Origin: a virus
Lineage: Duplodnaviria; Caudoviricetes
IMG/VR virus record: IMGVR_UViG_3300037483_000053
Span: 1 to 39,342 of that record
DNA length: 39,342 nt
Reading direction: 5' to 3' (one strand)
Below the pieces are notes generated by a model, which was not told the DNA's origin, did not search any database, and saw nothing but the letters and a program-made list of their open reading frames with translations. Positions 466 through 37,202 of this stretch are shown piece by piece. Positions within the stretch are counted from its first letter, which is position 1; every line of letters starts with the position of its first letter. A program made the translations under genes and the position numbers.

Positions 466-2086
466 ACAAGATAGGTGGTATCAAATAGAGGCAGTTGAAA
501 AGACAACTGCTTTGATGGATGGAAATCCATCTGCCCACCCTCTCATTGTAATGCCAACTGGCTCTGGTAAGAGCCATACAATGTGTATGTTTGTAGATGC
601 ACACCTTACTAAGAAGCCTGCTGACAATATCCTTATTCTTTCTCATGTTGCTGAAATACTTGAGCAGGACCACGAGGCGCTTTCTGATTTCTTTGATATT
701 GATATTGGTTTGTACTCTGCTGGTCTTGGTGAGCGTGATATAAAAAAAATTACGGTTGCTAGCATACAAACGGTATATAACAACCCTGAAAAATTCAAGC
801 ATTTTAATATTGTCATAATTGATGAGTGTCATCGCATTCCAATTAATAACAATAGCATGTACAGGAAATTCCTTTCTGAGTTGAATGCGGTTTACATTGG
901 GTTAACCGCAACTAACTTCCGTCTAGGACATGGATATATTCATGAAGGTGAAGGTGCTCTATTCACTGACATTGCATATGACCTGTCTGAGTATGAGGCA
1001 TTCAATCGTCTTGTTGATGAAGGATTTTTATCAAAGTTGATAACAAAGAAAACAATAGAGCAATTAAATACAGATGGCCTTAAAAAGACAGGTGGCGACT
1101 TCAATGTAAAGGCAATGGTTGATAGGTTTGACCGCTCTGAGATTACAAACTCTGCCGTATCTGAAATAATAAAGTTTGGGAAAAATTTCAAGAGGTGGTT
1201 GATATTTACTATTGATATTGATCATGCAGAGCATGTTGCAGATGAATTGTGCAGAAATGGAATTTCCACTGCTTGTATTCACTCAAAGATGGGCGAAGAT
1301 AGGAAGCAAGTAATCAAAGATGCAAAGGATGGCAAGTATAGAGCAGTTGTTAATGTTGATATATTGACAACTGGATATGATGACCCAAATATTGATTTGA
1401 TTGTTCTCCTTAGACCAACTGAATCACCATCGCTGCACATTCAGATGATTGGCCGTGGTCTGCGGGTTGTTTATGCACCTGGTTTTGATCTTGATACAAT
1501 TGAAGGGCGCTTAAATGCAATTAAAGCAAGTAATAAACAAGCATGCCTTGTTTTGGATTTTGCTGGCAATACAGAGAGACTTGGTCCAATTAATGATGTG
1601 AAGGTTAAACAGAAAGGAAAGTCACAAGGAGGCGAACCAATAACAAAAGAGTGTCCAGGTTGTGGAGTAATTCATCACCCAAGTGTTCGCACCTGTGACA
1701 TTTGTGGACATGAATTTGTATTCAAAGAAAAGATAAGCACAAGCGCAACAACTGCTGATGTAGTAAAAAATTCAAGCAATATAAAACAGTGGGTTGATGT
1801 TGCCGGTGTTTCATATTCAATTCACCAGAAGGCAGGAAGTCCATCAAGCTTGCGAGTCACTTACAATGTTGGATTTGTTTCATTCAGTGAATGGATTTGT
1901 TATGACCATGATGGATTTGCTGGCAGGAAAGCAAGGCATTGGGTCAAGTGGCGATGGATAGGAGTTGCTGGAATGCCAGATGACTTGTCTGGTTTGTATA
2001 AGAACACTGACTTGCTGATGAAGCCTAAGCAGATACTTGTCAACAACAGTGGAAAGTTCCCATCCATAGATGACTATTCATTCTAG
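437..2086 (+). CDS. superfamily 2 DEAD/DEAH helicase, RadD/YejH-like, with C-terminal Zn finger (start may be 449)
   Basis: Q motif RWYQ, Walker A PTGSGKS, DECH, motif III LTAT, TTGYD, QMIGRGLR, LDFAGN, CPGC..CDICG. Confidence 0.92.
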   Translation: MNKNMSKPAKQDRWYQIEAVEKTTALMDGNPSAHPLIVMPTGSGKSHTMCMFVDAHLTKKPADNILILSHVAEILEQDHEALSDFFDIDIGLYSAGLGERDIKKITVASIQTVYNNPEKFKHFNIVIIDECHRIPINNNSMYRKFLSELNAVYIGLTATNFRLGHGYIHEGEGALFTDIAYDLSEYEAFNRLVDEGFLSKLITKKTIEQLNTDGLKKTGGDFNVKAMVDRFDRSEITNSAVSEIIKFGKNFKRWLIFTIDIDHAEHVADELCRNGISTACIHSKMGEDRKQVIKDAKDGKYRAVVNVDILTTGYDDPNIDLIVLLRPTESPSLHIQMIGRGLRVVYAPGFDLDTIEGRLNAIKASNKQACLVLDFAGNTERLGPINDVKVKQKGKSQGGEPITKECPGCGVIHHPSVRTCDICGHEFVFKEKISTSATTADVVKNSSNIKQWVDVAGVSYSIHQKAGSPSSLRVTYNVGFVSFSEWICYDHDGFAGRKARHWVKWRWIGVAGMPDDLSGLYKNTDLLMKPKQILVNNSGKFPSIDDYSF

Positions 2087-2254
2087 TGGACCCCTCCTAG
2101 CCCCTTCCTAGCCGCTTCCTGCTTGCCCCTAGCCTACCCCCTCTCCTATATAGGAGAAGGGCTAGGCGCCCCCTCCTAGCCCCTCCTAGGCCGATTCTAG
2201 CGGCCTATCCCCTAGCCTAGACCCCTAGGATTCGCCTAGGGAACCTCTATAAGT
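2083..2254. repeat. CTAG-phased, TG/CA-free intergenic element (copy 1)
   Basis: 12 CTAG in 2083-2239; no TG or CA in 2125-2254; perfect palindrome TCTCCTATATAGGAGA at 2142-2157. Confidence 0.85.
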
Positions 2255-2305
2255 GGTTGATTTTCAACTATTTATCAAAAAAGTCAATTAATTCACAAAA
2301 ATTTG

Positions 2306-2333
2306 TAGACGGAGCTGAAAATTGGCGTATAGT
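2306..2333 (+). promoter_or_regulatory. sigma70-like early promoter
   Basis: TAGACG-16 bp-TATAGT with an A/T-rich UP-like tract upstream; flanks resemble those of the promoter at 3094. Confidence 0.55.
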
Positions 2334-3093: not shown

Positions 3094-3122
3094 TTTACTC
3101 TTGTTGGCAATGTCGTTATAGT
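3094..3122 (+). promoter_or_regulatory. sigma70-like promoter followed by a 5' leader hairpin
   Basis: TTTACT-17 bp-TATAGT with upstream A tract; hairpin GTTAGC-GGAAA-GCTAAC at 3133-3149. Confidence 0.65.
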
Positions 3123-3981: not shown

Positions 3982-4010
3982 AACTAGGCACGATGTTTTG
4001 TGGTAGTCGC

Positions 4011-4042
4011 GCCCCTAGCCAATCGGCTAGGGGCTTTTATTT
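4011..4042 (+). terminator. Rho-independent terminator
   Basis: GCCCCTAGCC-AATC-GGCTAGGGGC followed by TTTTATTT. Confidence 0.9.
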
Positions 4043-4080
4043 TGCCTTCATATATTAGAATATTCTAATATGCTAATAAG

Positions 4081-4180
4081 CTCCTAGGAGCTTGCAGGAG
4101 GCGTTTTAACTATCTACCCGCTACCTACCTACAGGGCTACATCTAGAAACGCCTCCTAGATAGTCGAGAATCGCCTCTAG
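4081..4180. repeat. CTAG-rich, TG/CA-poor intergenic element (copy 2)
   Basis: Inverted repeat AGGAGGCGTTT (4096-4106) / AAACGCCTCCT (4147-4157) around a CTACCTACCTAC core; 17-mer AAACGCCTCCTAGATAG shared with 12125-12141. Confidence 0.8.
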
Positions 4181-4347
4181 CACAACTACCCATACTATCA
4201 TAGGCGTGATAATCATTAGCATGCTGCTGTCTATCTATTACCATTTGATAGCTGCTAATAGGCGGGAGGATAGGAGGGGAGTTTTATTGATAGGATTAGA
4301 GGGGGAGAATATACGATACAAGTTCAAATCAATCACCAGAGGGAATC

Positions 4348-5265
4348 ATGAAGATTTTAGGAGCTGGGTTGGCTGGTTGTATTGCAGCAGCCATGAATCA
4401 AAATGCAACAATCATCGAATCAAGCAACAAAGGCAATCAGCAAAAGCACAAAGCTGTGTTGAGATTCCGCTCTCCACATATAGGAGAGGCAGTTGGAATA
4501 CCATTCAAAGAAGTAAAAGTGTACAAGGGTATATGGCACCGTGGCGCGCCAGCAACTCTTTCTCCACGGCATATAATCCTATACTCCAGAAAGGTGGCTG
4601 ATGTTGCAGCATGCAGATCAATTACTAATTTGGAGCCAGTTAATCGTTGGGTTGCTCCTGATGACTTTCATGAGCAATTGCTTGATATGTGTGATGGGCG
4701 CATTGAATATGGAACTCATTGCGATGCAGATGTCATAAATAGTCTGAAGGACGAACCAATTATAAGCACTATCCCAATAAATGTAATTGCAAACATATTG
4801 GGCAAGAGTATTGCTGTAAGTTGCAAATCAAGTGAAATATACGTTACACAATTGTCTGTTGAAGATTGTAATGTATATATGACAAATTATTACACTAGCC
4901 CTGATGTATTGCCATACAGAGCGTCAATAACAGGCAATAAAGTAATAATAGAAAGCTGTTGGCAAATTACCAAAGAGTGCATCAATCATGTAATTGACAG
5001 CTTTGGAATAAAAGGCATGTCAATTGATGTTATTGTTGATAATCACATACAGAGAAATGGCAAGATAGTTCCAATTGATGAAGATGCACGTAAACAGTTC
5101 TTAGTTTATGCAACAATTAAGCATGGCATATATAGCCTTGGTAGATTTGCAACATGGAGGAATATAGTACTGGATGATGTATACACAGATATTTTGAAAA
5201 TCAAAGCGATGATTAACAAAAGTCATTATGATCAACTGAAGATGGAGTACAACTATGAAAGTTAA
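4348..5265 (+). CDS. FAD/NAD(P)-binding oxidoreductase-fold protein, distantly resembling the UDP-galactopyranose mutase / amine oxidase group
   Basis: N-terminal Rossmann motif ILGAGLAG..AA....IIE; ISTIP; C-terminal flavin motif IYSLGRFATWR...DDV. Confidence 0.75.
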   Translation: MKILGAGLAGCIAAAMNQNATIIESSNKGNQQKHKAVLRFRSPHIGEAVGIPFKEVKVYKGIWHRGAPATLSPRHIILYSRKVADVAACRSITNLEPVNRWVAPDDFHEQLLDMCDGRIEYGTHCDADVINSLKDEPIISTIPINVIANILGKSIAVSCKSSEIYVTQLSVEDCNVYMTNYYTSPDVLPYRASITGNKVIIESCWQITKECINHVIDSFGIKGMSIDVIVDNHIQRNGKIVPIDEDARKQFLVYATIKHGIYSLGRFATWRNIVLDDVYTDILKIKAMINKSHYDQLKMEYNYES

Positions 5266-5998
5266 GCTGATTGATTATCAAACGAATGCACTTGAAATCC
5301 TTCTGTACACAAAGAATACCAGACTCACATCTGGTGAATCAATTCATGACATTATGAATTGGCCAGAAGAAAAGAAACTTGAGCATTTGGATTACATGCG
5401 TAATACCATCTCAAGTTCATGGGAATTTGCAGACTATACCTTTGAAATTTCAGAAGTGAGTCGCTCATTCACTCATCAGTTGGTCCGCACACGCACAGCC
5501 AGTTTCGCACAGCAAGCTCAGCGAGTTGTTGATGTACGCGATTCAGGCTATGTTGCTCAAACTGATCACCCAATCTTTCATGATGCAGTAAAACACAGCT
5601 TTGAAGAGTATGGAAAGTTGGTTGATGATGGAGTGCCAGTTCAAGAGGCTCGTGGGGTGCTGCCTACTTGCACTAATACCAACATAATTTTCAAGGCAAA
5701 TCTGCGCACGCTGTCTCATATGGCTGAAATGCGTATGTGCAAACGTGCAGAAGGAGAATATCAAAAGGTATTTGCAGAGATTCGCCGTGAGGTGTTGAAA
5801 GTACATCCATGGGCAGAGAAATTCATTCAAGTGTATTGCGTCAAGACTGGCCTCTGTGCATTCCCAAATTATGCAGAGTGCCCAGTGAAGCCATTTGTAC
5901 TTGCTCCAACTAAGGAGCAGATTGCAGCAATTGAATCTGCATGGAATGATTGTTACCACGTTGCAAATCCAGTTGCAAAAGATGGGAGAACAATGTAA
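5255..5998 (+). CDS. thyX: flavin-dependent thymidylate synthase (ThyX) homologue with non-canonical motif
   Basis: SSWEF..YTFEISEVSRSFTHQLVRTRTASFAQQAQR, EARGVLP, NLRTL, R.C.RAEGE. Confidence 0.85.
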   Translation: MKVKLIDYQTNALEILLYTKNTRLTSGESIHDIMNWPEEKKLEHLDYMRNTISSSWEFADYTFEISEVSRSFTHQLVRTRTASFAQQAQRVVDVRDSGYVAQTDHPIFHDAVKHSFEEYGKLVDDGVPVQEARGVLPTCTNTNIIFKANLRTLSHMAEMRMCKRAEGEYQKVFAEIRREVLKVHPWAEKFIQVYCVKTGLCAFPNYAECPVKPFVLAPTKEQIAAIESAWNDCYHVANPVAKDGRTM

Positions 5999-6489
5999 TG
6001 ACAATTCAAGAATTATTCAAAATTGGGATGAAGCGTGACATCCCATTGTTAATGGAGGATGCCAAGGGTGGCATCATCTTAAATTTAGGCGCAGGAAACC
6101 AATCCATTGATGGAGCTACTGCATTCGATTGGCCAGATTGGGATGCAGAACATGGCTTTATACCATGCCCAGACAATTCAGTATCTCAAATTCACGCTTA
6201 TCATTTCTTTGAACATCTGCGTGACCCTAGAATAATATTGGCAGAGTGCCAGCGAGTACTCAAAAAATCAGGCCACATAAACATTGTGGTGCCATATTAC
6301 AAATCGAATATGGCATTCCAGGATTTGGATCACAAATCATTCTTTACTGAAGATACATGGAAGAATCTTTTTTCAAAAGAGTATTACTCAAAAGGGAAGA
6401 TTGATTGGGAATTCAAGATTGGATTAAACATCATCATTGGCATCAATGAACGCAATTTGTGCTTAATGACTCAACTTATTAAGGAGTAA
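5998..6489 (+). CDS. class I SAM-dependent methyltransferase (Methyltransf_11-like)
   Basis: LNLGAG, PDNSV...HFFEHL, E..RVLK..G.I.IVVP, D.DHK. True start is the TAATG overlap with thyX. Confidence 0.85.
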   Translation: MTIQELFKIGMKRDIPLLMEDAKGGIILNLGAGNQSIDGATAFDWPDWDAEHGFIPCPDNSVSQIHAYHFFEHLRDPRIILAECQRVLKKSGHINIVVPYYKSNMAFQDLDHKSFFTEDTWKNLFSKEYYSKGKIDWEFKIGLNIIIGINERNLCLMTQLIKE

Positions 6490-6492
6490 GGA

Positions 6493-6810
6493 ATGGCCAA
6501 GAAGCAGAGCAAGTGTTTTGTTGCAGTTGAGCTTGAAAGTGCTGCAAATACTTATGAAGAGCGCAATGCAATTTATGGCGATACATACAAGCGCCATGGG
6601 CATGTAATGTCTGCTCTTTTCCCCGATGGCATTGCAGTTGACAATCCACATGACATGAATCGACTTGGTGTCTTGAATATGATTGTTGGAAAGTTGACGA
6701 GGTATGCAACAAACTTTGATAATGGTGGCCACAAAGATAGTCTGCATGATTTGTCTGTGTATGCAGCAATGCTGAATGAACTTGATCACGAGGTTGATCA
6801 TGAAGGGTGA
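6493..6810 (+). CDS. all-alpha nucleotide pyrophosphatase-like protein (nucleotide-modification-associated domain 1 / DUF6378-like)
   Basis: ER...YGD, KLTRY, H.DSLHDLSVYAAML motifs; AAGGAG RBS. Confidence 0.7.
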   Translation: MAKKQSKCFVAVELESAANTYEERNAIYGDTYKRHGHVMSALFPDGIAVDNPHDMNRLGVLNMIVGKLTRYATNFDNGGHKDSLHDLSVYAAMLNELDHEVDHEG

Positions 6811-7348
6811 TTTTGTTGTAATTGATACTGAGACAACTGGGCTTCTAAAGCCAAGCCCAGTTGATAAGAATATGCAACCTTTCATCACAGAGTTTTATGG
6901 CATTCGCATAAACAAGAACTGGGAAGTTGTTGGTGAATTTGAAACATTCATTAAGCCTCCTATGCCAATTCCTGATGAGGTTGTCAAGATAACTGGCATC
7001 ACTGATGAAATGGTTGCAAATGCACCTACATTCATTGAAGTTTTTGATGACATTGTTGAGCTCTTTCATGGAGCAAGACGAATGGTTGCACACAATTTAT
7101 CATTTGATGCAGGAGTTTTAAGGCAGGAACTTGAGCGCCATGACTTGGCTTTCAAGTTCCCTTGGCCACCAGAATGGCATTGCACAGTTGAACTTAGCAA
7201 ATCAATCAGAGACAAGGCATTGAAGTTGAGAGATTTGCATGAGATTGCAACTGGCACTCCACATGAAGATGGTGCACATCGTGCTAAAAATGATGTCATG
7301 GCTCTAGTTCGCTGTTACAAATGGCTTTGTGATAAGGGATTTGCATAA
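6800..7348 (+). CDS. dnaQ: DEDDh 3'-5' exonuclease (Pol III epsilon-like)
   Basis: IDTETTG, VAHNLSFD, AHRAKNDV; GAGGT RBS before ATG at 6800. Confidence 0.92.
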   Translation: MKGDFVVIDTETTGLLKPSPVDKNMQPFITEFYGIRINKNWEVVGEFETFIKPPMPIPDEVVKITGITDEMVANAPTFIEVFDDIVELFHGARRMVAHNLSFDAGVLRQELERHDLAFKFPWPPEWHCTVELSKSIRDKALKLRDLHEIATGTPHEDGAHRAKNDVMALVRCYKWLCDKGFA

Positions 7349-10165
7349 ATGAAAGAAATCATCAACCTGGCGCTGAGAACTGAATACACCTTCAAAAAGG
7401 TGTATGGCTATGCAGAAGATATAGTGAAATATGGCAATGTAGCAGTTGGAATAGCAGATTCCAATAATACATTTGGTCATGTCACTCTTGAAAAAGAGTG
7501 CAAGAAAGCAGGCATAAAGCCAATCTTTGGCATCAGGTTGATGGTTGTCCGTGATGCAACTGAGAAAGGAAAAGCTCGTCACCACGGGCCAGAATACATT
7601 TTCATTGCAAAGAATCAGGATGGCTTGAAAGAAATATACAAGTTGGTCATGGCTGCATATGACCAATTTCACTTCTGGCCAAGAATTGATGTGCATGATG
7701 TCAAGAAGTTAAGCAGAAATGTTATTGTAATTGCAGAGAACTTCTTTGATGAGACTCGCATTGATTATATTGCGCTTAGTCCATCAACACCAAAGTTGAT
7801 TAAAGATTTTCCATTGCCAAAGGTTGCAATAATTAACAACTACTATCCAACTGCCTTTGACAAACCAATCTATGAATTGCTGTCTGATGGCGGGTTTATC
7901 CATACATATCCACAGCATATTATGACAACTGCAGAGTGGTATCGAATCTGCAAAGATGAAGAAGCAATAAACAACACTCATGTAATTGCAGATATGTGCG
8001 AGCACTTCACCATTCCAAAGGCACCAATGGTGAGGTACAATGGCATGATGAAAATTGAAGTTGCTATTAAGAATGGCGCAAAGAAAAGAGGCATTGATAT
8101 TGATTCAGAGCCATACAAGTCACGCATGGAGCGTGAATTGGATTTGATTAAGCAGAAGGATTTTGGTGACTATTTCCTTGTTGTTGCTGACATGATAAGA
8201 AAGGCTAAGGCAAAGGGAATATTGGTTGGGCCTTCTCGTGGCTCATCAGCAGGCTCACTTGTTTGCTATTTGCTTGGCATCACTGAAATTGACCCTTTGT
8301 CATTTGGATTGATTTTTGAGCGATTCATTGATATCAATCGTGCTGACCTACCTGATATTGACGTTGACTTCCCTGATAACAAGCGTCAAATTGTAATCAA
8401 GCAACTTGTCAATGACTATGGCGAAGAGAAAGTTGGTCATATTGCTACAATTGCTAAGCTGAAAGCAAAGAGCGCAATTGGTGCATTTGCTAAGTCTCTT
8501 GGCATACCTCCTTATGAGACAGAAGGAGTAAAAGACGCAATCATTGAGCGCAGTGGTGGTGATGCCCGTGCGGCGATGTGCATAATGGATACATTTGAGA
8601 CAACTGAAGTTGGTCAAGTATTTATTGAAAAGTTCCATGCTATGAAGCTTGTTGAAAGAGTTGAGAATCACTCTAGTCACGCAGGGGTTCACGCAGCTGG
8701 TATTATTGTTTGCAATGAACCATTGACTGATTTTGTTGGTCGCAATACTCGTGATGACATGGTAATGGTTGATAAGAAGGAGGCTGAATATCTCAATCTG
8801 TTGAAGATTGATGTGCTTGGACTTCGCACGCTGTCAATACTTCATGATTGTGCAAAATTGGCAGGACTTGACCCACAAATTTATTACACGCTGCCATTGG
8901 ATGATGGCGATGCATTCAAGCTGATAACTGATGGTAGGTGGTCAGGTATTTTTCAGTTTGAAGGCCAAGCTCTGCAGTTTGTAACAAGGCAAATCGGCGT
9001 ACATGAATTCAATGATATTGTAGCAATCACTGCACTAGCTCGTCCTGGTTCAATGAACTCAGGTGGCACAAACAAGTATATCAAATCAAAACTTGGTGAA
9101 GTAAAGCCTGTTTACTTTGATAAGATTCACGAAGACATAACTGGTGAAACTTTTGGTGTAACTGTATATCAGGAACAAATGATGAATATGGCCCGAGAAA
9201 TTGGCGCCATGAGTTGGGAAGATGTGTCTGATTTGCGTAAGGCTGCATCAAAATCACTTGGTGATGAGTTCTTTGCAAAGTACAAGGACAAGTTCATTGA
9301 AGGTGCAACAGCAGTAAATGGTTATACAAAAGAAAATGCAGAGGAAATGTGGTCAGACATTCAGCACTCTGGCTCTTGGATTTTCAACAAATCACATGCA
9401 GTAAGTTATGCTCTGATTTCATACTGGACTGCGTGGGCCAAGGCGCACTACCCACTTGAATTTGCAGCAGCAAACCTTAACAATGCAAAGGATGATGATT
9501 CTGCATTGAAGTTATTGCGTGATATGGTAATAAATGATGGCATTGAGTATGTAGCAATTGACCCTGATGAATCGAAAGAAAATTGGTCAATTGCAAATGG
9601 TAAGTTGATTGGCGGTTTGACAAGCATCAAGGGAATTGGTGCAAAAAAGGCAAAGGAAATTATAACAAGGCGTGATAATGGATTGCCTTATACTCCTGCA
9701 ATGGCAAAGACTTTGTTCAACCCAATTACAATGTTTTCCTCTCTATTCCCTTGCAAAGATAAATGGGGCAAACTATATGAAAGGCCAATTGATTTTGGGT
9801 TGATTGCACCTCCAAGCAACATTGCTGATGTTACAAGCGGAACTTGTGTTGTTATTGGTAAAGTTATTAGTCGTGATCTCCGTGACCGCAATGACTACCA
9901 ATCAATACAAAAACGAGGTGGCAAAAAAGTTGACAAGAATCAGTTTTATTTGAAATTCTATATTGAAGATGATACTGATTCCATCATGTGCATGATTTCC
10001 CCACAAGACTTCAATAAGTTGAATGGAAAGAGATTGGCAGAAACATTGAAGGAAGGTGAAACATACGTCATTGTTAAAGGTGAAATACGCAGTGACTGGC
10101 GAATGATAACTGTTAAAGAAATACTTGATTTGACTGAATGGGAGAAGAACAATGGTGGCATCTGA
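7349..10165 (+). CDS. dnaE: DNA polymerase III alpha subunit (family C)
   Basis: PHP N-terminus (LRTEYTF..GIAD), RGSSAGSLV, FERF, PDIDVDF, HAAG, LLKIDVLGL, FQFE, YQEQ, FNKSHA. Confidence 0.96.
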   Translation: MKEIINLALRTEYTFKKVYGYAEDIVKYGNVAVGIADSNNTFGHVTLEKECKKAGIKPIFGIRLMVVRDATEKGKARHHGPEYIFIAKNQDGLKEIYKLVMAAYDQFHFWPRIDVHDVKKLSRNVIVIAENFFDETRIDYIALSPSTPKLIKDFPLPKVAIINNYYPTAFDKPIYELLSDGGFIHTYPQHIMTTAEWYRICKDEEAINNTHVIADMCEHFTIPKAPMVRYNGMMKIEVAIKNGAKKRGIDIDSEPYKSRMERELDLIKQKDFGDYFLVVADMIRKAKAKGILVGPSRGSSAGSLVCYLLGITEIDPLSFGLIFERFIDINRADLPDIDVDFPDNKRQIVIKQLVNDYGEEKVGHIATIAKLKAKSAIGAFAKSLGIPPYETEGVKDAIIERSGGDARAAMCIMDTFETTEVGQVFIEKFHAMKLVERVENHSSHAGVHAAGIIVCNEPLTDFVGRNTRDDMVMVDKKEAEYLNLLKIDVLGLRTLSILHDCAKLAGLDPQIYYTLPLDDGDAFKLITDGRWSGIFQFEGQALQFVTRQIGVHEFNDIVAITALARPGSMNSGGTNKYIKSKLGEVKPVYFDKIHEDITGETFGVTVYQEQMMNMAREIGAMSWEDVSDLRKAASKSLGDEFFAKYKDKFIEGATAVNGYTKENAEEMWSDIQHSGSWIFNKSHAVSYALISYWTAWAKAHYPLEFAAANLNNAKDDDSALKLLRDMVINDGIEYVAIDPDESKENWSIANGKLIGGLTSIKGIGAKKAKEIITRRDNGLPYTPAMAKTLFNPITMFSSLFPCKDKWGKLYERPIDFGLIAPPSNIADVTSGTCVVIGKVISRDLRDRNDYQSIQKRGGKKVDKNQFYLKFYIEDDTDSIMCMISPQDFNKLNGKRLAETLKEGETYVIVKGEIRSDWRMITVKEILDLTEWEKNNGGI

Positions 10166-11265: not shown

Positions 11266-11345
11266 AACCTTTCTAGATTCCTAGGATCTAGCCCTATCCC
11301 TTAGTAGGGGTCTATAGATTTAGCGTAGGAACGCCCGATTTAACT
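11266..11345. repeat. CTAG-rich, TG/CA-free intergenic element (copy 3)
   Basis: No TG or CA over 80 bp; CTAG at 11273, 11281 and 11288. Confidence 0.7.
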
Positions 11346-12039: not shown

Positions 12040-12069
12040 GTTATAGGCGGCTTTTCAGCCGCCTATAAC
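12040..12069. terminator. hairpin between the convergent replication and late operons
   Basis: 12-bp stem GTTATAGGCGGC-TTTTCA-GCCGCCTATAAC; U-tracts are weak. Confidence 0.65.
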
Positions 12070-12175
12070 GCCCTAGGTTCGATTCTGTCCTCTACCCTAT
12101 ACCTACCCCTAGCCTCACCTATATAAACGCCTCCTAGATAGGCTATAGCTAGTTCTAGGGATACTCTAAACGCTT
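12070..12175. repeat. CTAG-rich, TG/CA-poor intergenic element (copy 4)
   Basis: Core CCCTATACCTACCC at 12095-12108 (reverse complement at 24496-24509); AAACGCCTCCTAGATAG at 12125-12141. Confidence 0.8.
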
Positions 12176-12178
12176 GTC

Positions 12179-12400
12179 CTACCTTGTCCCAATTGCTGAC
12201 TCTCTGCACTTGTAATATGTCCCTGCAACCTCAGCCAATTTTTCACTTGTTGCGCCAAATGAATCATCAGTCAACTCCCCCAGTGATGCTGGGCAACTTG
12301 CCACTACCAACCCCTGGTCCACGCAGCGCGTCGTTAAGCAGCTGCAACCCGATAGGAGTATGGCGGCAGTCAATATAAATAGGCTCCTTAATTGTTTCAC
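12179..12400 (-). CDS. o-spanin (Rz1-like outer-membrane lipoprotein)
   Basis: Lipobox LLSG/C; overlaps the 3' part of the i-spanin in another frame; C-terminal Y..C. Confidence 0.8.
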   Translation of the reverse strand: MKQLRSLFILTAAILLSGCSCLTTRCVDQGLVVASCPASLGELTDDSFGATSEKLAEVAGTYYKCRESAIGTR

Positions 12401-15568: not shown

Positions 15569-18500
15569 TTATGCAATGTAATATCCATTGTCGCCATTTG
15601 ACATCAACCCATCATCATCTGTTATGAAACCATATGAAGCCTTATTCTCATCAGTTTCATCTAGATAATCATTCATTGCATCAGGAGTTACAAAGCCATA
15701 TTTTATAAGCATGTATACAGTCGATTGCGCGATGTATTCATACAAATGCCCCGGCTCTTTTTCAAGTGCTTGCAAAATTTGGATTTTTTGCAATACATTT
15801 GCTCCATCAAATCCTTGAAACATTCGAGAATTAAGTATTGAATTATCACCAGTCCAAATATCATTCTTTCTAGCATCAAGTGAAAATTTAACTGTTTTTG
15901 GCGTTTCATTGAAGCGATTAAGAAGCCTACCAGCAAGAGTAACAACCAATCCTGCATTTGCAGACCTTAGCCAGTCTGCATATATAACTTTCACTGATTT
16001 TTCTCCGTGAGCATTAACACCTTCGCTATCTGGATCAGCTTGAATCTCCCATATGCGATAATTGTTTGGCTCATTGTCACCAGTTATATCAATTTTGTCA
16101 TAGTAAACCCACAATTGACTTATCCTATCCTTTGGATCATCAACAACAGACATTGAATTTTCAACAATGTCATATGTATCACTTATTGCTATTGGGGATT
16201 CATTTTTCAGCGCAGGTGCAATAGCCTTCAACTTAATCTTTCTGTTTATTTCATCCCACCAAATATAAATTAGATTTTGTTCCATCAATTTTACAATCAG
16301 TGAGTTAACACCAGTTGGCTCAGTTATTACATGAGTCAAATCATTAGCAGATAGCCAATCTGCCTTCTCTAAATCCCATTCATCATCAATTCCAGTTGGT
16401 GTGTCTCTCCCTGCGTCATATGGTATATATTCCTCTGGAATATTTGCATAATTCCTAAGTACATAATTCAGAATATCAACAACATTTACGCTGTTAAAGT
16501 AAACACACAATTGAACCTGATCATCAATTGACAAATCAGAGTCAGTTGACCCAAATTGCCCACCAACGACACCAGTCAGCGTATCTGTACTCACTCCAGT
16601 GTATTTGAGAACATTATCACCAACTCTTACATAACCTGGGTATATAACGCTGATTGAATTTCCAGTGTATGGGTCAATTGAATAATCAACTCCTTCACCA
16701 GATTGCAGAACAAGAGTTGTGCTAACACCAGCAGTATAATCAACACTAAGTGAACCAGAGCTTGGCGCAGGAATTTGTGCACGCTTGTCATCTGCAAGCT
16801 CAAGTATATCCTTACCACTTATTGTGACTCTGCCATTGCCATCTGGCCCATCAATCTTGTCAATTACATATGTGCGAGTTTCAAAATCAATCCATGAAAA
16901 ATCATCATTTATATACCCAACCAAAAGCCGCATTAAGCGACCTTTGTAATATGGATTCCTTGCTTTCAATTTGCCAAAAAAAGTTCCTTGGCTAGATGCA
17001 TCATATGTCCGTGTCGCGAAGTATGGATCAATGCCACGATCATGATGCGGAAAATCTTGCATCCTTATGGATATTGATCCTCTCCAACCCAATCCTTTAT
17101 CAGGTGTTATCCTTGTTGGTGTTGTGGTCGGATTGCCAACAATACACGGGAATCCTTCAATGCCAATTGGCAAATTTGAGTGCGGTTGGAAAAAGTTAAA
17201 TGTCTTTGTTGCCTTGTTGTAATTGGCCTTGTCCTGGCATGTTTTGTACGTGTTGTAGCAGGCGGCGCTCATGTCGAACGTCCCGTAGCCGCTCAACGCC
17301 TCCAACTGTGCATTGGTCAGTCGCGACGGCCAATATACTAGGCGGAGGATGTGACCGTTAAATATGTTTCCTCCAGACCCATTTTGCCCAATACCCATCC
17401 GGTCAACGGTTGGCATTGTTCCAGACGTATCCGCGACAGATGCCGCTCCGTCTCTGGATGCTGCAAAATCATTTGCTTTGTACGCAATAGCCATCCGGAA
17501 CACTTCACCGGCAGTTATTGCGCCAGTGTGCATACTAGCTTGTAGAACAGAGTCAGCAGAAACATATCCGCGTGCGGCGCCTTCCGCCTCAATAACAAAC
17601 GAGGATATTTGGTTCGTCAGGCTAGGATTGCTAAACGAGAACAGCCGTGGATACGCAGTTGCTCCGCTTATGTACTGTTTCTCCCCCTCAACAAACACCG
17701 TGGATTCGCTGACATTGTGGAAGCCGCTAATGTCCGTGCAGAGAATTCGATCTGCATTGCGGGTGACGGCGGCGGTTGTTGGAGTGGGAATGTAAGATGA
17801 CGGGGCTGCTCCAACCTCGACCTGACAGCCCCACGCGACTTTGCTACCCGTTAATGACGGTTCTGAGGCAGAATCCCCTGTTGTATTGAATGCAGGGTAG
17901 AGCGCGAATGCGATTGTGTTGTTTCCACTCGCATTATCTGCGGAGGTCATCCAGACCCGCCAGTAATCCCCGTAATCTTCCACGCCGCTGTTAACCGCGG
18001 TGGAAAACGTTATTGCTCCTGAGTTGGTATCTACAGTTATAGAGCGCGAAACAGCTGTGCCGCCAAGAATGAACACATTAATATAAGCGTAGTGTGTATC
18101 GCTGGTTGTTTTCTTTATGAACCATGACAGACAATACGTGTTACTACTACTGGTAATCGATCTGTTTTGTTGAACTCGCCCCGTCAACGCGCCGCTTTCG
18201 TCTGATACAGTATCAGCCGTCACCGTTCCATCGGGAGCAACATCCGTATTGCTATAGATAACGATATTAGTGCTAGAACTATTCAACCATCCGCCATCCC
18301 CGCCAGAGGTCAGTTGCTCGGATAAGTATGCAAGATTCGTCCGCGACTCCTCAGCAAAAAGCCCCCGACACTCCAGCGTCACAGGATCATAATCGAAGCG
18401 CGCCGTATCGGCTGCAACAACCTCTATAAGACCGGATTCGTTGACCCGCGTGGCGGTAGCTCCAGCACGAGTGCAGGTAAACACGGCGGTACCGACGCGC

Positions 18501-19425: not shown

Positions 19426-21479
19426 CGCGCCACCAACTCTACACCTTCGCCAACTTGCTCATTTATTTGCTGCATAAGTTCACGGACACTGTCTTTGCTA
19501 TACCCAGCGCCATTTAGAGTCACATTAACAACTCTAACTGGTTGGGCAGTTTGCTCACGGCCACTTGGGATAGCAGTAGAACCAGGTGGCAAACCACTAG
19601 AAACAGGCGCAGAGGGCGAAGAACTACCGCCGCCGCCTACCGAAGCCCCGCGTCCTCCGCCGCCGAAACTAGCAGAACTAATTGCATTAATCTGAGACAG
19701 GCCCTGAGCAAGCATCAAGCCAGCAGGAATCAAGCCCCATGGGTATCCACCACCTGCCTCAAATGATTTAATCACTGCAGATGGTAGTGTAACAGCAGCA
19801 TTTGCTAAAGCAAGGGTCTTTTGTACTTCAAACATTTCCTTGTTATTCTTGGAAACAGTAGCAAGCATCAATGAGCCATTTTTCAATGCAGATTGATAAT
19901 CCTGCTTACGCATTGCATCAGCAAAATCAATTGACGCACGCCAAGAACCAGACTCTAGATTGAACAAACGTTCAAAATAATCTGATTGCTCTTCAAATTC
20001 TGCTTCGCGCTGTTCACGCTGACGTTCAATTCTTTCATCTTCAATGGCACGCAACTCTTCATCAAGTCTAATTGCTGATTCAAGGCGCAATTGATTCAAA
20101 ATTTCTTTATCATATACACCTTGTTCTTCTGCTTCATTTAGCAGATTTTGGCGCTCCATTTCTTCTTCAATTGCAACTTGTGTTTCATCTCGCATTCCTT
20201 TACGAAGCATTTCAACTCGCTTTTCTAGTGTTGCCTTCAACTTATCAAGTTCTTTTTGTTCTGTTGCACTCAAGCCTTCATCCTTTGGCTTGTTTACGCC
20301 AACATCAATAGTTGCAGTTGCTTTGCCTTCTTTGATATTGCGCTTATTCTTATCCCAAATTTTTGCAATCTTATCAATTGTGTCTTCCATGTCACCAGTC
20401 AATTCGTTGTTCAACTCTTCAGAGCCAGTCATGATGCTGTCACCAACATCATTGAATACTTCTTTAGTGATATCAGCCGCTGCCTTAAAGTCACCTTCAA
20501 ATAACGCAACTACTGCAGCAGCAAGTCCACCAATTGCACCACCAACAGTTTCCAAAGTGCCCATAAATACCGTTGACAGAGATGTTGTAAGTTGATTTAC
20601 TGCCTCTACAGCCACCAACATCATGGTTGAGAAAATCTTGGTTTTTTCAGACAATTCATCAGCTGGTTCAAGAGTTCCGAACAATGCGCTGGTGAATCCA
20701 AGAATATGAGGCGTAACATCTGCCAACGCAGCTTGTGTTGCGCTTAGACTATCTTTAATGGCACCCTTCAACCCCTCCTCACCAATTTCAACCATCAGGC
20801 TGTCAAAAGAGTCAGAAAGATTTGAAGTCATGCCGCTTATTGTGTTCATCTGCTCAGACATTGCGCCAGCAAACTGAACATCACCAATTCCCTTTAGGTA
20901 TTCTTGAATTTCATCTGCATTCTTCTTTACTTCAGTGGAAACACCTTGGAAAGTGAAAGTTACATTATCACCTTCACTGCGCGCCTTTACACCAAATTCT
21001 TTCAGTCGCTCAAATTCACCAGTTGCAGCATCAGCAACTGCCTCAATCATTTGATTAAGCGGCTTGCCCATTGCAGATGCAGTATTACCGAACGAGCGCA
21101 GAGAATCCTCACTTGGGTCCAGACCAAGTGCCTTCAACTTAATAAATGCATCAGTGATTTCTGAAACTTGGAATGGAGTCTCTTTAGCAAAATCACGAAT
21201 CAAATCCATTGCAGCAACTGCACCTTCAGCAGAGCCAGTTACTGTTTTGAGCGATGCTTGCATCTTCTCAAATTCAGCAATTGTTCCAACAAGCTCTCTG
21301 CCAACTGTTGCAATACCAGTTGCTGCTATAATTCCACTAAATTTGCTCCATGTGGCTTGAAGCCCACCAACTGCAGACTCAGTTTGCTTTGACCGCTGAC
21401 CAAGCGCATCAAGCTCTCTGACAGCACCTTTAATGTCGTCAGTTGTTACTTTGATGCCAAGTTCAGCAAGAGTAGTCAT
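19422..21479 (-). CDS. tail tape measure protein
   Basis: FA.ETPF.V, EAVADA.TGEFERLKEFG, helical Ala/Glu-rich body; follows the tail chaperones. Confidence 0.92.
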   Translation of the reverse strand: MTTLAELGIKVTTDDIKGAVRELDALGQRSKQTESAVGGLQATWSKFSGIIAATGIATVGRELVGTIAEFEKMQASLKTVTGSAEGAVAAMDLIRDFAKETPFQVSEITDAFIKLKALGLDPSEDSLRSFGNTASAMGKPLNQMIEAVADAATGEFERLKEFGVKARSEGDNVTFTFQGVSTEVKKNADEIQEYLKGIGDVQFAGAMSEQMNTISGMTSNLSDSFDSLMVEIGEEGLKGAIKDSLSATQAALADVTPHILGFTSALFGTLEPADELSEKTKIFSTMMLVAVEAVNQLTTSLSTVFMGTLETVGGAIGGLAAAVVALFEGDFKAAADITKEVFNDVGDSIMTGSEELNNELTGDMEDTIDKIAKIWDKNKRNIKEGKATATIDVGVNKPKDEGLSATEQKELDKLKATLEKRVEMLRKGMRDETQVAIEEEMERQNLLNEAEEQGVYDKEILNQLRLESAIRLDEELRAIEDERIERQREQREAEFEEQSDYFERLFNLESGSWRASIDFADAMRKQDYQSALKNGSLMLATVSKNNKEMFEVQKTLALANAAVTLPSAVIKSFEAGGGYPWGLIPAGLMLAQGLSQINAISSASFGGGGRGASVGGGGSSSPSAPVSSGLPPGSTAIPSGREQTAQPVRVVNVTLNGAGYSKDSVRELMQQINEQVGEGVELVAR

Positions 21480-24408: not shown

Positions 24409-24532
24409 ATTATATAGCCCCCCCTACCCCTACCTCTAGACCCCTCCTAGGACCGCCGGAGCGGGCCTAGGCTAGTCTTTCGAGGTCTACCCCTAGGGTA
24501 GGTATAGGGAGGGGGCGCGCCTCGCCTTAAAC
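24409..24532. repeat. CTAG-rich, TG/CA-free intergenic element (copy 5)
   Basis: No TG or CA in 124 bp; five CTAG; core GGGTAGGTATAGGG at 24496-24509. Confidence 0.85.
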
Positions 24533-26130: not shown

Positions 26131-26185
26131 GAGGCGCTAACGTTAGTTAGACTTCGGCTTCGCGTCTAGTCTAGTCGATAACTAC
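26131..26185. repeat. short TG/CA-free island between scaffold and capsid genes
   Basis: 55 bp with no TG or CA; TCTAGTCTAG. Confidence 0.5.
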
Positions 26186-26207
26186 AAGCAAGTAAAGATG
26201 CAAAAAT

Positions 26208-32583: not shown

Positions 32584-32660
32584 GGCGCTGCGTATTCCCT
32601 TTCTTAGTTCGACGTAGTATAAGCGCCGCTTTCGATTTTCGGAAGCCTATAGGCGTTGAA

Positions 32661-34029: not shown

Positions 34030-34410
34030 TGAAAAAGTGTTGGAAAATAAAAAATTAACAGGTTCGAGGGTAAAAGTTAAAAATCTGTTTAACCCGCTCT
34101 AGCCCGCGCCGTTCCTAGCCCTCCCCTATATATACCTATAAAATAAAAAAATAAAAAAGAAATAGAAAACAATTAATTGGAAGAATAGGAGGGGTAAGCA
34201 GAGAGGGGTTTTGATGGAAATAGAGGGAGAGGTCGGGGAGGGCCGTTTTATTTTTTATTTTTTTATTTTCCGCTCTCGAATAAATTTTATTTTCGTTTCG
34301 CATCTCTAAATCCTCTTATAAATTAGTAACTTACGCCGACTCAACTAACAATTTCTGCTAAATTTTTACTGACTTTTATAGATATAAAAAAATAAATTTT
34401 TTTATCTTTC
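34030..34410. other. probable replication origin
   Basis: Non-coding, very AT-rich, downstream of the primase/helicase; AAAATAAAAAA repeats at 34140-34158 face TTTTATTTTTT repeats at 34246-34269. Confidence 0.55.
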
Positions 34411-34665
34411 AAATTTGCTTCTGTGTTCACAAAGCACACCAATCCAATCAACTCCGGTGAATTTATAGCTGAGAAATTCAACTAAATCATCAAATTCACA
34501 TTGGTTAACAAGCATGACAATCAATTCATAAATGAAAACAAACTCCAATTCTTGCGCTTGATTGATGTGTTGCAGGTGACAACAAATATTGGCCTTCCTT
34601 TTATGTCTAAATAATTCCCTCTAATTGGAATATTTCTGCTCATGACACTCTCCAGTTTATCAAAT

Positions 34666-37020
34666 TTAGTTCATTACATAGCAAGCGCGCTTCTTTCCAT
34701 CAACATCAATCTTCTTCAATTCAAGCCCATTTATCAAAACCCAATTGTTAATTGCTCTATTGATTGTCTCTGGATTATTGTACTTTGGATTCTTGGAAAA
34801 GAACTTATGGGCCTTGACTCTAGCATTGAAATGTGTTGCAACAATACCACCCACGGCGTGCCAAGGCTCATAATCATGACTGACTTTCTTCACGCAGCGT
34901 TCCCAAACCTCATTAATAGCAATTGTTTCAGCAGTTGCTTGTGATGTATTCAAGATATTATTGTACAAAAATCTGCGTATTTTCAGCTGATACTCCATGA
35001 ATGGTAGGATAAATTGCTCGAATTTGCCTCCATCAATCTCCAAAACAATGTCATTTAGCTTGCTTAAAACAATATCATCTACACTTTCACCATTGTAAAT
35101 TCGCCACATGTAACAGAAAGCAGCGATTTCAGTTGTCTGTTTCTCTGCGCTACCAATGATGCGTTTGATGAATTTGTACTCATCACGTGAAATATTATCA
35201 TTATTTACCAATGGCAATAGAGTTTCAGTCTCAAAGCGGTGTATGAACCCACCTGATTTTGAAGTTGAAACCTTGATTTGATATCCTTTGTGTGCGTGAA
35301 TGAACTTGAAAACAAAGCGCAGGAAGTCAACATATTCTGAATTTATCTTGATTTCCTTTGAGCTTAACTCAGTTGATGCTACTTCAGGGCGGTCAATATT
35401 GTCTGCATAGTAGTCAATCCGATTGCCAAGTCCAATATCAATCATACGCTGTGTAAGATTGCGTTCAATTGCCTCAGTCTGTTGAAGTCTTAGCATTGTG
35501 TAATTTGGATTATGCATGTCTTCAAATCGACTCTTACCAACAACCTTACCGCTGATATTGTGTCCATCCCATGCATTAATTTCAATGCGCATTACACCCT
35601 CTGTGTGAGGGTTATCAGCATTGGCAACCATATCCCAGTGACCGCTTGCCTCTGTATTAAGAATCAAGCCGCCATCTTTATTCTCTTCAAATCCAAGTGT
35701 CTTCAGATACGTTGTATCAGCAGTAACACTTTCATATATTGGAGAAAGCAATCTCAATCCAAGAGTATCAGATTCAGATTCACTATCCTTCAATTCACCT
35801 TTCATGTGAGTGAGAATGCGCTCAATTGGCTCACTGGTGTTACTATCCTTGCCAACACCAGAGGCAGAGATTATCTGCATATTCAAGTTGCACCCACGCC
35901 CACGGACTGTGCGGAAGATTGAGCCAAGCAATACAGAGTGATACGCGAAACAAGCTGGCACGTAAATCTCTTCAATCACTTGATATATTGCATCTTCAAA
36001 TGTCTTGAAAATGAGAGGCCATGGTTGTGGCCAATCTCTTACAAAACTTGTGTTGAAGTGTGGCAGTTCCTTCTTATCAGTTCCGCTGCCAGTGCTGTGG
36101 AATTTATAATAACGCTCACTGTTTATTTTCTTGATTGCTGATGCAGCTGATTGAGCGTGATGGTCATATGAGCTTTCAGTGAATATTGCGCATAGTATTG
36201 CAATGATTTCATCAAGCGGCACATTGTAATTGGCCAACTTCATTGCTGTACGTGAGCTTGGTCCGTGCCGGTGACCTGCTTGATAGTCTGCGATTAACTC
36301 TGCCATTGTCTTGGTCAGCGTCTCGCTCTCGTTTATAGCCTTCTCGCGGGTATCGGTCTCCCATCCTTCTATAGAATCGGCGGGAGGGAAGGCGGAAATA
36401 ATGTCAACCCAGTCATAAACAGTGCCATTGCCCATAAATACCACAAGGTGTGGGTTTTCAGGGTCTTTCATGTGATAAAAGCCAGGCAGGCGCAGAACAC
36501 GCGCCAAATCCTTAGCATTGTTATCACAGTCATACTTGGTTACTAGAGTTGACATGACTCCTTCCCACTGAATCTTGTTCATCTCAGTGGGCTTAATATC
36601 AGTCAACCAGTAATAGTGGAATTTGCCAGGGCTGGAATTTACAATGAAGCTAGGCTCAATTGGCCAGTCATTCCGTGGGGTGTCGCGCTTATTGTCATCC
36701 TCAACCCACACAGAGCGGATGCGCGTGATCATATTGATGGTGCGCTTGTGAGCTGGATCAAGAGCTTGATCCAATTCATTCACTGCGAAGAAGCAACCCC
36801 ATGCATCATTATTGTGGTTCTTCAACCACTTTACAATGGATTCATCAAAGTTACCAGTCTTGTGCCAAATCTTCCCATATTTCTTTACTGTTGCTATGTC
36901 CTTGGTTCCTCTGCCGTCATCCTTGGCTTGAAATATGAAAGGGAGATTTGATGGAAAAGCTGAAAGGAATCTGTTTGTGTCATTGCTGAAACTGTTATTA
37001 TCATTCAGGCTTGAATTCAT
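34666..37020 (-). CDS. primase-helicase: RepB-like primase N-terminus plus P-loop (DUF3987-like) C-terminus
   Basis: FFAVN, R.VWVEDD, SSPGKFH.YW, KD.ARVLRLPG..H.K, Walker A ASGVGKD. Confidence 0.85.
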   Translation of the reverse strand: MNSSLNDNNSFSNDTNRFLSAFPSNLPFIFQAKDDGRGTKDIATVKKYGKIWHKTGNFDESIVKWLKNHNNDAWGCFFAVNELDQALDPAHKRTINMITRIRSVWVEDDNKRDTPRNDWPIEPSFIVNSSPGKFHYYWLTDIKPTEMNKIQWEGVMSTLVTKYDCDNNAKDLARVLRLPGFYHMKDPENPHLVVFMGNGTVYDWVDIISAFPPADSIEGWETDTREKAINESETLTKTMAELIADYQAGHRHGPSSRTAMKLANYNVPLDEIIAILCAIFTESSYDHHAQSAASAIKKINSERYYKFHSTGSGTDKKELPHFNTSFVRDWPQPWPLIFKTFEDAIYQVIEEIYVPACFAYHSVLLGSIFRTVRGRGCNLNMQIISASGVGKDSNTSEPIERILTHMKGELKDSESESDTLGLRLLSPIYESVTADTTYLKTLGFEENKDGGLILNTEASGHWDMVANADNPHTEGVMRIEINAWDGHNISGKVVGKSRFEDMHNPNYTMLRLQQTEAIERNLTQRMIDIGLGNRIDYYADNIDRPEVASTELSSKEIKINSEYVDFLRFVFKFIHAHKGYQIKVSTSKSGGFIHRFETETLLPLVNNDNISRDEYKFIKRIIGSAEKQTTEIAAFCYMWRIYNGESVDDIVLSKLNDIVLEIDGGKFEQFILPFMEYQLKIRRFLYNNILNTSQATAETIAINEVWERCVKKVSHDYEPWHAVGGIVATHFNARVKAHKFFSKNPKYNNPETINRAINNWVLINGLELKKIDVDGKKRACYVMN

Positions 37021-37202
37021 TATAACTGCCCTAGTTTATGTTGTTTTCAACAGGTAATAAGGTCTATAGAGTACGCCTAGAGGGTAGTTGATAGGAAGTA
37101 TCTTAGATTTTCCGCCCTATTTACCTCAACTAAAAATAGGGTAAAGATAACTACAACAGTAGCAATCATGGCGTTAGAGTAACAGTAAACTGGAGAATAA
37201 AG
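37021..37202. promoter_or_regulatory. divergent control region (TG/CA-poor) with an operator-like inverted repeat
   Basis: Strand switch point; CCCTATTT (37115-37122) / AAATAGGG (37134-37141). Confidence 0.5.

Follow-up and report, generated by a model that had tools for sequence, protein, structure and literature searches.

Why should a phage genome that is crowded with the dinucleotides TpG and CpA contain tracts from which both are absent? The question is raised by the virus record IMGVR_UViG_3300037483_000053 (Duplodnaviria; Caudoviricetes), whose full length of 39,342 nucleotides is called the window here. A first-pass annotation had proposed that the phage modifies a base in TpG/CpA (in the following TG/CA), accumulates these sites in bulk DNA for protection against nucleases and keeps TG/CA-free islands as unmodified protein-binding elements; selection for bendable TA steps was named as the alternative. 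On balance we favour the interpretation that thymine followed by guanine is modified and that the islands are kept unmodified for predicted gyrase sites and sigma70 promoters.

TG/CA excess and TG/CA-free islands

The bulk of the window is indeed rich in TG/CA and poor in CG, with odds ratios of 1.43 for CA/TG, 0.58 for CG and 0.63 for TA, and positions 6541–6600 hold 11 TG/CA. The excess holds at synonymous codon junctions when compared with 200 codon permutations: T followed by G is found 2390 times versus 1603 in the permutations (z 34) and C followed by A 1025 versus 638 times (z 22); C followed by G (344 versus 739, z -22) and T followed by A (810 versus 1387, z -25) are depleted. All seven intervals that had been listed as free of TG/CA contain none, the one starting at 34216 extending to 34301, and those described as nearly free hold two (4096–4180), four (12041–12180) and two (37052–37150). 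Further gaps lie at 19611–19673 in the tape-measure gene, at 12117–12175 and at 36317–36362.

These gaps are not expected by chance. Nine of them measure at least 50 bp, compared to 0.025 expected from 200 first-order Markov genomes, in which the longest gap was 38.6 bp on average and 53 bp at most. When the bases of nine islands were shuffled 10,000 times each, no island came out free of TG/CA in more than 2 of the shuffles. Among the ten dinucleotide classes of the window, TG/CA has five gaps with an expectation below 0.01 and the runner-up class, AA/TT, has two. The gap at 19611 is borderline against codon permutation (62 versus a 95th percentile of 55 and a maximum of 74).

The composition of the islands was pooled from 25 window gaps of at least 29 bp (1341 bp in total). 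TA and CG had been said to take the place of TG/CA; this is true for TA (1.82) more than for CG (1.09). Likewise, GA/TC is not excluded (0.97), as had been claimed, whereas AC/GT is lowered (0.60). The pooled islands have a GC content of 48% versus 42% overall and harbor 34 of the 83 genomic CTAG sites. As six of the 17 non-coding stretches are not depleted (TG/CA ratios 1.3–1.7), the loss of TG/CA is no general property of intergenic DNA.

Probable thymine modification and the gene block

The suggestion that a base is modified in TpG/CpA is likely to be right, since the Pbunavirus phages F8 and 14-1, which have the same gene block, carry a sugar-modified thymine at TG (PMC12191111). F8 DNA is resistant to five enzymes that have TG in their recognition sequence (Yee et al. 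2025, PMC12191111), and about one quarter of T is replaced by a nucleoside of 362 Da in F8 or 390 Da in 14-1, which the authors read as tetritol and pentose derivatives (PMC12191111). The share of T that stands in TG is 27% in F8 and 30% in the window. Judging from genes and sequence, we think that the window phage is very probably modified at TG as well; a sugar-type group would be placed on thymine at TG steps, as in its Pbunavirus relatives. Restriction resistance has been noted for Wifcevirus (PMC11990801), and in phage SH-Ab 15599 T is modified at TG by another route (PMC13458397).

The replication arm of the window reads helicase, 269-aa protein of unknown function, phrog_4828, ThyX, methyltransferase, DUF6378, exonuclease, DnaE, ligase and dUTPase (Table 1). 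Thus, a Pbunavirus-type set of ThyX-like protein, phrog_4828, DUF6378, exonuclease and DnaE is present as in F8 and 14-1, which is an association and not a proven pathway. Since exonuclease and DnaE travel with the block, it is wider than positions 4348–6810. Matches to the phrog_4828 protein come from 362 phage records, most of them of Pbunavirus and its kin; those to DnaE, counted separately, come from 360 records and span 80% of its length.

The phrog_4828 model (predicted local distance difference test score 92) is most like UDP-galactopyranose mutase (Foldseek E 1e-9, template-modelling score 0.55–0.64; Z 20.0, root-mean-square deviation 3.6, 289 aligned), with protoporphyrinogen oxidase at Z 16.9. 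As the sequence identity to the mutase amounts to 10–16%, the mutase fold is supported and not mutase activity; no UDP-galactopyranose mutase Pfam match was found in 120 members and no significant sequence match in PDB. A true mutase adjoins DNA glycosyltransferases in phage RL38J1 (PMC13326640). ThyX is known to pass through an exocyclic-methylene step (PMC8989533). The window protein departs from the canonical motif RHRxxSxxQxSxR, having R-T-R and Q-Q-A-Q-R, and Thr replaces His in 118 of 120 homologues.

Among the 57 proteins of the 81%-complete record no Pfam or PHROGs match was found to deoxyuridine monophosphate (dUMP) hydroxymethylase, 5-hydroxymethyl-deoxyuridine (5-hmdU) DNA kinase or aGPT-Pplase. 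The lack of matches to these 5-hmdU-pathway genes and the canonical T elsewhere in F8 DNA favour synthesis at the nucleotide level. One could imagine that ThyX forms the exocyclic methylene on dUMP without reducing it, that this methylene is captured by a sugar or polyol which the mutase-fold flavoprotein has prepared, and that phage DnaE and exonuclease retain the modified T only where G follows. This scheme is speculative, and we would sooner doubt than trust it. The masses of 362 and 390 Da both fit ethers of 5-hydroxymethyl-dU by our own arithmetic.

The methyltransferase has no tblastn match in F8 and is a candidate that may, judging from its fold and distribution, be responsible for the mass difference of 28 Da between F8 and 14-1. 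Two methyl groups also weigh 28 Da, and a triple quadrupole instrument was used (PMC12191111), which allows dimethylation as an alternative to the published assignment; this alternative is our inference and contradicts the fragment-based assignment of the authors (PMC12191111). Homologues of the methyltransferase (window 5998–6489; L008:6707–7207) were found in 58 Pseudomonas phage records, compared to 292 with the flavoprotein, and also in Mycobacterium and Gordonia phages. It was also considered as an anti-END protein and discarded, as anti-END is gp88 in 14-1.

In phage VA-RY-3 a sulfotransferase-family gene lies inside the block (L002:21766–22521), and further decoration of the base is possible there. 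A native nanopore assembly of Pbunavirus failed (preprint 10.64898/2026.07.08.737226). In the genome of phage PVA7 (L251, PQ582223) genes are split by many frameshifts. Compared to VA-RY-3, 20 of 25 single-base insertions have TG/CA at most 2 bases away (background 56%, p 0.012), and 11 deletions show no such trend. These insertions may be base-calling errors at modified T, though the numbers are small.

Islands in relatives and controls

Islands were searched in 80 IMG/VR loci with the flavoprotein, of which 68 have at least 10 kb. A significant island was found in 13 of the 68 (L011 and L012 being near-duplicates). On the contrary, none of 98 controls has an island: 0 of 60 capsid-related loci (80 taken, 60 long enough; Fisher p 2e-4) and 0 of 38 helicase-related loci without the flavoprotein (80 taken, 40 long enough, the other two repeating contigs of the block-bearing set). 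The control phage JLT2 has no islands either. The cultured phages Ss1, VA-RY-3 and PVA7 have four, six and six, and the six best DnaE matches all carry islands and the next three none. Thus, within the larger modified group, islands are chiefly a trait of a small-genome clade.

In L034 the islands keep their place and not their sequence. This contig has islands after the helicase gene, before the flavoprotein gene and after the ligase gene as in the window, with local alignment scores of 29, 20 and 18 versus shuffle maxima of 24, 31 and 24, respectively; L034, L028 and L011 share the position of the window island after the ligase gene, though no sequence there can be aligned. In addition, some islands of relatives lie inside essential genes. 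The ligase gene of Ss1 contains one of 168 bp (codon-permutation maximum 79), in which 55 codons do without His, Gln, Met, Trp and Cys; VA-RY-3 has an island at the same place, the ligase gene of PVA7 likewise contains one, and in-gene islands of L029 and VA-RY-3 measure 139 (maximum 81) and 103 (maximum 76). From these sequence comparisons we consider it probable, with good confidence, that the islands are selected to stay unmodified.

It is very hard to believe that the islands are structured non-coding RNAs or terminators that happen to lack UG/CA. There is a hairpin with a T tail at 4011–4034 and several islands are intergenic, but Rfam has no match anywhere in the window, relatives have islands inside their ligase genes, and the controls have terminators too and no islands.

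The bulk excess has a different distribution. The odds at synonymous junctions are 9.4 in the window versus 0.9–3.5 in 29 low-GC controls; they are higher in low-GC block-bearing loci than in low-GC controls (p 6e-5), with no difference above 46% GC (p 0.29). F8 and 14-1 are control-like with a CA/TG ratio of about 1.0 and junction odds of 1.8 and 2.1. The excess is thus lineage-specific, and the proposal that sites accumulate for nuclease protection does not hold as a general rule, as F8 and 14-1 are modified and yet lack it. Either selection or mutation bias may be its cause. A lineage-wide mutation or repair bias turning TA and CG into TG/CA may well explain the bulk excess, given the junction odds here and of up to 442 in a relative. 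For the islands, this explanation would have them as constrained stretches that escaped, and taken as a whole we regard it as improbable: escape predicts ordinary TG/CA levels and not zero over 130–170 bp, the islands diverge in sequence yet remain TG/CA-free, and islands are also present in VA-RY-3, L079 and L084, where the bulk bias is small or absent (odds 1.7, 0.6 and 2.2).

Other biases were seen in these loci. Six block-bearing contigs (L018, L040, L043, L051, L055 and L060) show extreme CpG loss (odds ratio 0.06–0.17; junction odds 30–442), perhaps from a second modification or a host effect. In L080, L079, L010 and L255 (phage JSF39) the bias is reversed and TG/CA is under-represented genome-wide (0.72–0.94). 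F8 (50598–51170) and the pbunavirus loci L049 and L056–L059 have 530–570 bp without the dinucleotide AT in the Lys/Glu/Ala-rich gp66 gene.

Predicted gyrase sites in the islands

Which protein could require such DNA? The gyrase motif of Escherichia coli spans 130 bp with a period of 10.75, cleavage is enriched downstream of highly transcribed genes (Sutormin et al., PMC6379681), and the periodicity has been tied to DNA flexibility (preprint 10.1101/2025.10.21.683783). We scored sequences with the published E. coli matrix (PMC6379681), raw and phase-only, the latter with the base-composition preference removed. In phage Mu the matrix ranks the strong gyrase site first (17876 versus the annotated cut at 17879). 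It replaced a plain Fourier score, which was a poor predictor (at most 7.3 for the Mu site versus 14.4 for the best of the genome).

The six best raw sites of the window are centred at 2146, 12103, 4054, 37418, 18455 and 24487 and hold 3, 3, 9, 20, 12 and 4 TG/CA per 130 bp, the window mean being 22.6; the best phase-only sites are 4054, 12103, 32350, 34380, 35562 and 2266 with 9, 3, 22, 14, 26 and 10. The 6% of the window lowest in TG/CA hold four (raw) or three (phase-only) of its top five sites. In 8 (raw) or 7 (phase-only) of 16 island-bearing sequences the top site falls within the 2% lowest in TG/CA; the same is true of 7 or 4 of 58 block-bearing sequences without islands and of 0 or 1 of 60 controls. 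In exact dinucleotide shuffles, which keep TG/CA out of the shuffled islands, p<0.05 is reached for the motif by 4 of the 16 regions from the window and by 11 of the 42 islands from relatives, compared to 2 of 60 random regions, with high scores over 130 bp for the predicted sites at 4054, 12103 and 11300 (p 0.0025–0.01). In PVA7, which was fetched after the idea had been formed, both top gyrase sites lie in islands, and the top site of F8 scores 17.4 and overlaps the 80-bp gap of this genome. We would give even odds to the idea that gyrase reads 110–170 bp, 11-bp-periodic islands near operon ends and at the convergent junction.

Purely structural selection, in which bendable or promoter DNA prefers TA and CG steps and no base is modified, has some points in its favour: in 39 pooled islands of at least 80 bp the power of GC and of WW (W being A or T) peaks at 11–11.5 bp, and TG/CA is slightly depleted in the non-coding DNA of every phage tested. 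In fact the intergenic/coding TG/CA ratio was tried as a discriminator and rejected, as its median is 0.86 in block-bearing and 0.85 in control loci (p 0.9). Nevertheless, the simple form of the TA-bendability alternative is not supported, as the same islands show no TA-step periodicity of 10–11 bp and the strong Mu site keeps 16 TG/CA per 130 bp, so that wrapping alone needs no absence of TG/CA. In addition, TG/CA at the top gyrase sites of the 60 controls still stands at 93% of the mean, and the controls have no islands. We therefore hold structural selection alone to be very unlikely.

TG-free promoter elements

The second candidate reader is RNA polymerase. The promoters mapped in 14-1, LUZ19, LUZ24 and PAK_P3 were counted by eye from the accessible part of the report (Putzeys et al., PMC10914365). 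TTGAC occurs in 1 of 26 sigma70-labelled 14-1 promoters versus 49 of 73 in the other phages, which we assume to be unmodified (LUZ19 4/4, LUZ24 8/10, PAK_P3 37/59; p 6e-9), and TTTAC in 9 of 26 versus 3 of 73 (p 2e-4). Before a near-consensus -10 box, block-bearing loci have TTTAC 82 times versus 35 expected, TAGAC 28 versus 13.6 and TTGAC 22 versus 29.2; the respective figures for the controls are 7 versus 15, 4 versus 6.2 and 15 versus 9.8. SH-Ab 15599 has TTTAC 13 times (3.1 expected), and the five annotated promoter repeats of YuA all begin with TTTACT. It is likely that sigma region 4 is obstructed at TTGACA by a bulky C5 group that projects into the major groove, and the TTTACT and TAGACG -35 boxes would follow from this hindrance.

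The window promoters are matrix predictions. With the matrix from the mapped 14-1 promoters, the best and second-best matches are the TTTACT boxes at 26196 and 3094, which adjoin islands; a scan with a generic sigma70 model yielded fewer sites than the shuffled sequences did (25 versus 36.8; 33 versus 40.2).

What the islands may be for

The claim that cis-elements are kept unmodified stands in so far as islands are found only in block-bearing DNA among the sequences examined and overlap predicted gyrase sites and TG-free promoters; it does not extend to gyrase at every island, as most fail the gyrase test. We suggest that the modified group would sit in the major groove, where host proteins that wrap or read the DNA would work poorly, so that selection would remove TG/CA from their sites. 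The islands would then be unmodified DNA at which host gyrase and RNA polymerase bind.

Several observations weigh against this proposal. F8, 14-1 and PY059 have no long islands, none were found in the 50-kb parts of WFH, MyoSmar, Carpasina, JSF39, YuA and SH-Ab 15599 (JSF39 being included as a DnaE relative, its flavoprotein unconfirmed), and in 55 of 68 block-bearing contigs no island reaches significance. The bulk excess is likewise lacking in F8, 14-1 and other large relatives. As F8, 14-1 and others are modified without islands, a modified phage need not have islands, and the spread of the islands could stem from shared ancestry. The controls are fragments and in part near-duplicates, and the block could lie outside them. 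The matrix stems from E. coli and may not fit the host of the phage; for the gyrase motif p<0.05 is not reached by 12 of the 16 regions from the window, among them its two longest islands on the phase-only score, nor by 31 of the 42 islands from relatives, and island-like random sequence by itself scores slightly higher (mean 8.2 versus 7.3). In Ss1 only one of the top five gyrase sites is TG/CA-poor, WFH, MyoSmar and JSF39 disagree with the overlap of gyrase sites and islands, and Carpasina agrees on the raw score only. The spacers of the 14-1 promoters hold TG/CA at background (50 versus 41.6), so that promoters explain the hexamers and not tracts of 130 bp. Finally, TTGAC is above expectation in WFH and MyoSmar (3 versus 1.5; 4 versus 1.4), and TTTAC boxes occur in other phages too, such as T4.

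Given the many islands that fail the gyrase test, TG may be modified and the islands selected while being read by a phage protein or by some host factor other than gyrase, such as an origin, packaging or nucleoid protein. The 269-aa product of gene 3172–3981 would be a candidate: it is basic, its gene has a very low TA content and positional counterparts just before the flavoprotein in Ss1 and VA-RY-3, and it gives a weak Rho_N/HeH-like signal. Furthermore, the A-tract-rich region 34060–34410 lies beside the primase gene, and short shared words exist (4113–4163 is 76% like 12091–12141). However, islands at the same position have no alignable sequence between relatives, for which shape readout is a better fit than a sequence-specific protein; an overlap with gyrase sites is seen again in PVA7 and F8, and an atlas search with gene 3172 gave no match at 0.9 or above. 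We regard such a reader as unlikely, and return to gyrase and RNA polymerase as the preferred readers.

Comparison with known systems

The window phage shares with F8 and 14-1 the flavoprotein, ThyX, DUF6378, exonuclease and DnaE genes and TG-free -35 boxes, and the best gyrase site of F8 is TG/CA-poor as well. It differs from them as a siphovirus-type phage of about 40 kb with long islands and a bulk TG/CA excess, whose modification is predicted from sequence. It also falls outside the genus Pbunavirus (myoviruses of about 66 kb with sheath and baseplate) by its 39 kb and its DnaE, which is 37–38% identical to those of F8 and 14-1. The accessible part of the report on these phages names neither biosynthetic genes nor a sequence footprint (PMC12191111).

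The hypermodified 5-hmdU phages (M6/YuA, ViI, SH-Ab 15599; PMC8989533, PMC13458397) resemble the window in a modified T that prefers TG (SH-Ab 15599) and in TTTAC-type -35 boxes (YuA, SH-Ab 15599). Their route needs the dUMP hydroxymethylase, 5-hmdU DNA kinase and aGPT-Pplase, to which no match was found among the window proteins, and YuA and SH-Ab 15599 lack long islands in 50 kb of each. The predicted gyrase sites of the window are similar to the strong Mu site and the E. coli motif (PMC6379681) in length, GC periodicity of about 11 bp, matrix score and position downstream of operons. The Mu site, however, is single and keeps TG/CA, whereas the window has several weaker predicted sites without TG/CA (raw 8.7–10.4 versus 12.5; phase-only 12.1–14.5 versus 18.2).

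Two further systems deserve comparison. Vertebrate CpG islands are regulatory DNA in which a dinucleotide open to modification has another density than in the bulk of the genome and remains unmodified. The logic of the window islands is inverse, as the target is absent from them and abundant in bulk, and protection would thus be written into the sequence. Fungal repeat-induced point mutation causes loss of CpA/TpG with gain of TpA and lowers the GC content of repeats, whereas the window islands are unique and GC-richer than the genome, and reading frames are intact in relatives. We tentatively put forward, at somewhat less than even chances, an inverse CpG-island code in a clade of small phages: thymine armour at TG on about 30% of T, TG/CA-free docking pads of 110–170 bp for gyrase, and TG-free -35 boxes. 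The pads would be retained even where they restrict the amino acids that essential enzymes can use, and the TG specificity may come from phage DnaE itself.

Thymine modification at TG is already known in relatives; the islands, their gyrase overlap and the -35 switch, or a link between them and the modification, were not found in a literature search by title and start of abstract that did not cover most subscription journals. The cost that arises when host enzymes have to read hypermodified phage DNA is largely unmeasured, and this genome offers exact sites for it. If our reading is true, the target of a modification and the host proteins blocked by it are readable from sequence, and dinucleotide gaps and -35 usage would predict the modification context in uncultured phages. 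In addition, candidate genes, the methyltransferase among them, are named for the unexplained modification of Pbunavirus, which is widely used in phage therapy.

The record and its features

Table 1. Genes, islands and predicted sites of the window
Feature	Position	Strand	Remarks
Island, TG/CA-free	2083..2254		After helicase gene; CCTAG repeats every 10–14 bp
Top raw gyrase-matrix site	centre 2146		In island 2083..2254; dinucleotide-shuffle p 0.02 raw, 0.11 phase-only
Predicted sigma70 promoter TAGACG-16-TATAGT	2306..2333	+	Consensus match only; -35 and -10 without TG/CA
Predicted sigma70 promoter TTTACT-17-TATAGT	3094..3122	+	Ahead of gene 3172; TG/CA-poor tract 3059–3149
TG/CA-poor tract	4007..4181		Terminator-like hairpin 4011–4034 with T tail
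Best phase-only gyrase site	centre 4054		In 4007..4181; shuffle p 0.0025
TG/CA-poor tract	4254..4319		Ahead of modification block; gyrase shuffle p 0.037
phrog_4828 flavoprotein, UDP-galactopyranose-mutase-like fold	4348..5265	+	Homologue of F8 gp65
Divergent ThyX	5255..5998	+	RHR reads RTR; motif Ser reads Ala
S-adenosylmethionine (SAM)-methyltransferase-fold protein	5998..6489	+	49% identical to 14-1 gp13
DUF6378 protein	6493..6810	+	Matches C-terminal part of F8 gp57 family
3'-5' exonuclease and DnaE polymerase	6800..10165	+	Travel with block
Island	11266..11345		After ligase gene; gyrase-motif site centre 11300, p 0.01
Island	12041..12180		Convergence of replication and late genes; gyrase-motif site centre 12103, p 0.0025
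TG/CA-poor tract	18389..18505		Tail gene; fifth raw gyrase site, not significant (p 0.12–0.14)
63-bp island	19611..19673		Gly/Ser linker of tape-measure gene; borderline; no gyrase signal
Island	24409..24532	-	Ahead of head-tail adaptor gene, with TATAAT -10-like box at its end; sixth raw gyrase site, shuffle p 0.08 raw and 0.24 phase-only (not significant)
Island	26131..26196	-	Ahead of major capsid gene; predicted promoters TTTACT-17-TAGACT (26196) and TAGACG-17-TAACGT (26168)
Island with predicted promoter TTCCGA-17-TATACT	32590..32657	-	Ahead of gene 32583
Two islands, 34087–34170 and 34216–34301	34060..34410		A-tracts; downstream of primase gene; origin-like by position only; gyrase test on both islands not significant
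TG/CA-poor tract	37052..37154		Between divergently read primase and NinX-like genes

The record is a 39-kb virus genome that may miss about one fifth of its length and was recovered in sediment and soil sequencing runs. Its structural genes are of siphovirus type (tape-measure, tail-tube), and a tail sheath has no match among the 57 window proteins. The stretches 1756–2160, 12080–12314 and 12120–12595 are identical in contigs from other runs and thus no assembly artefacts. Transitions among 40 of the 57 differences listed in four runs are uninformative (TG/CA lost 12, kept 11 and gained 8 times); in island 11266–11345 one of three variants makes a TG, seen in one contig of depth 2. Run X5 differs at many tail-gene sites in 15501–18477 and joins 15501 to 16796, which suggests that the tail varies among strains.

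GATC and CCGG are found at about half the expected count in the whole window (0.49 and 0.52), which is consistent with restriction-site avoidance at sites without TG. Long antisense open frames run over the capsid gene (24771–26036, + strand) and gene 3172 (3264–3966, - strand) and are probably a by-product of TA scarcity.

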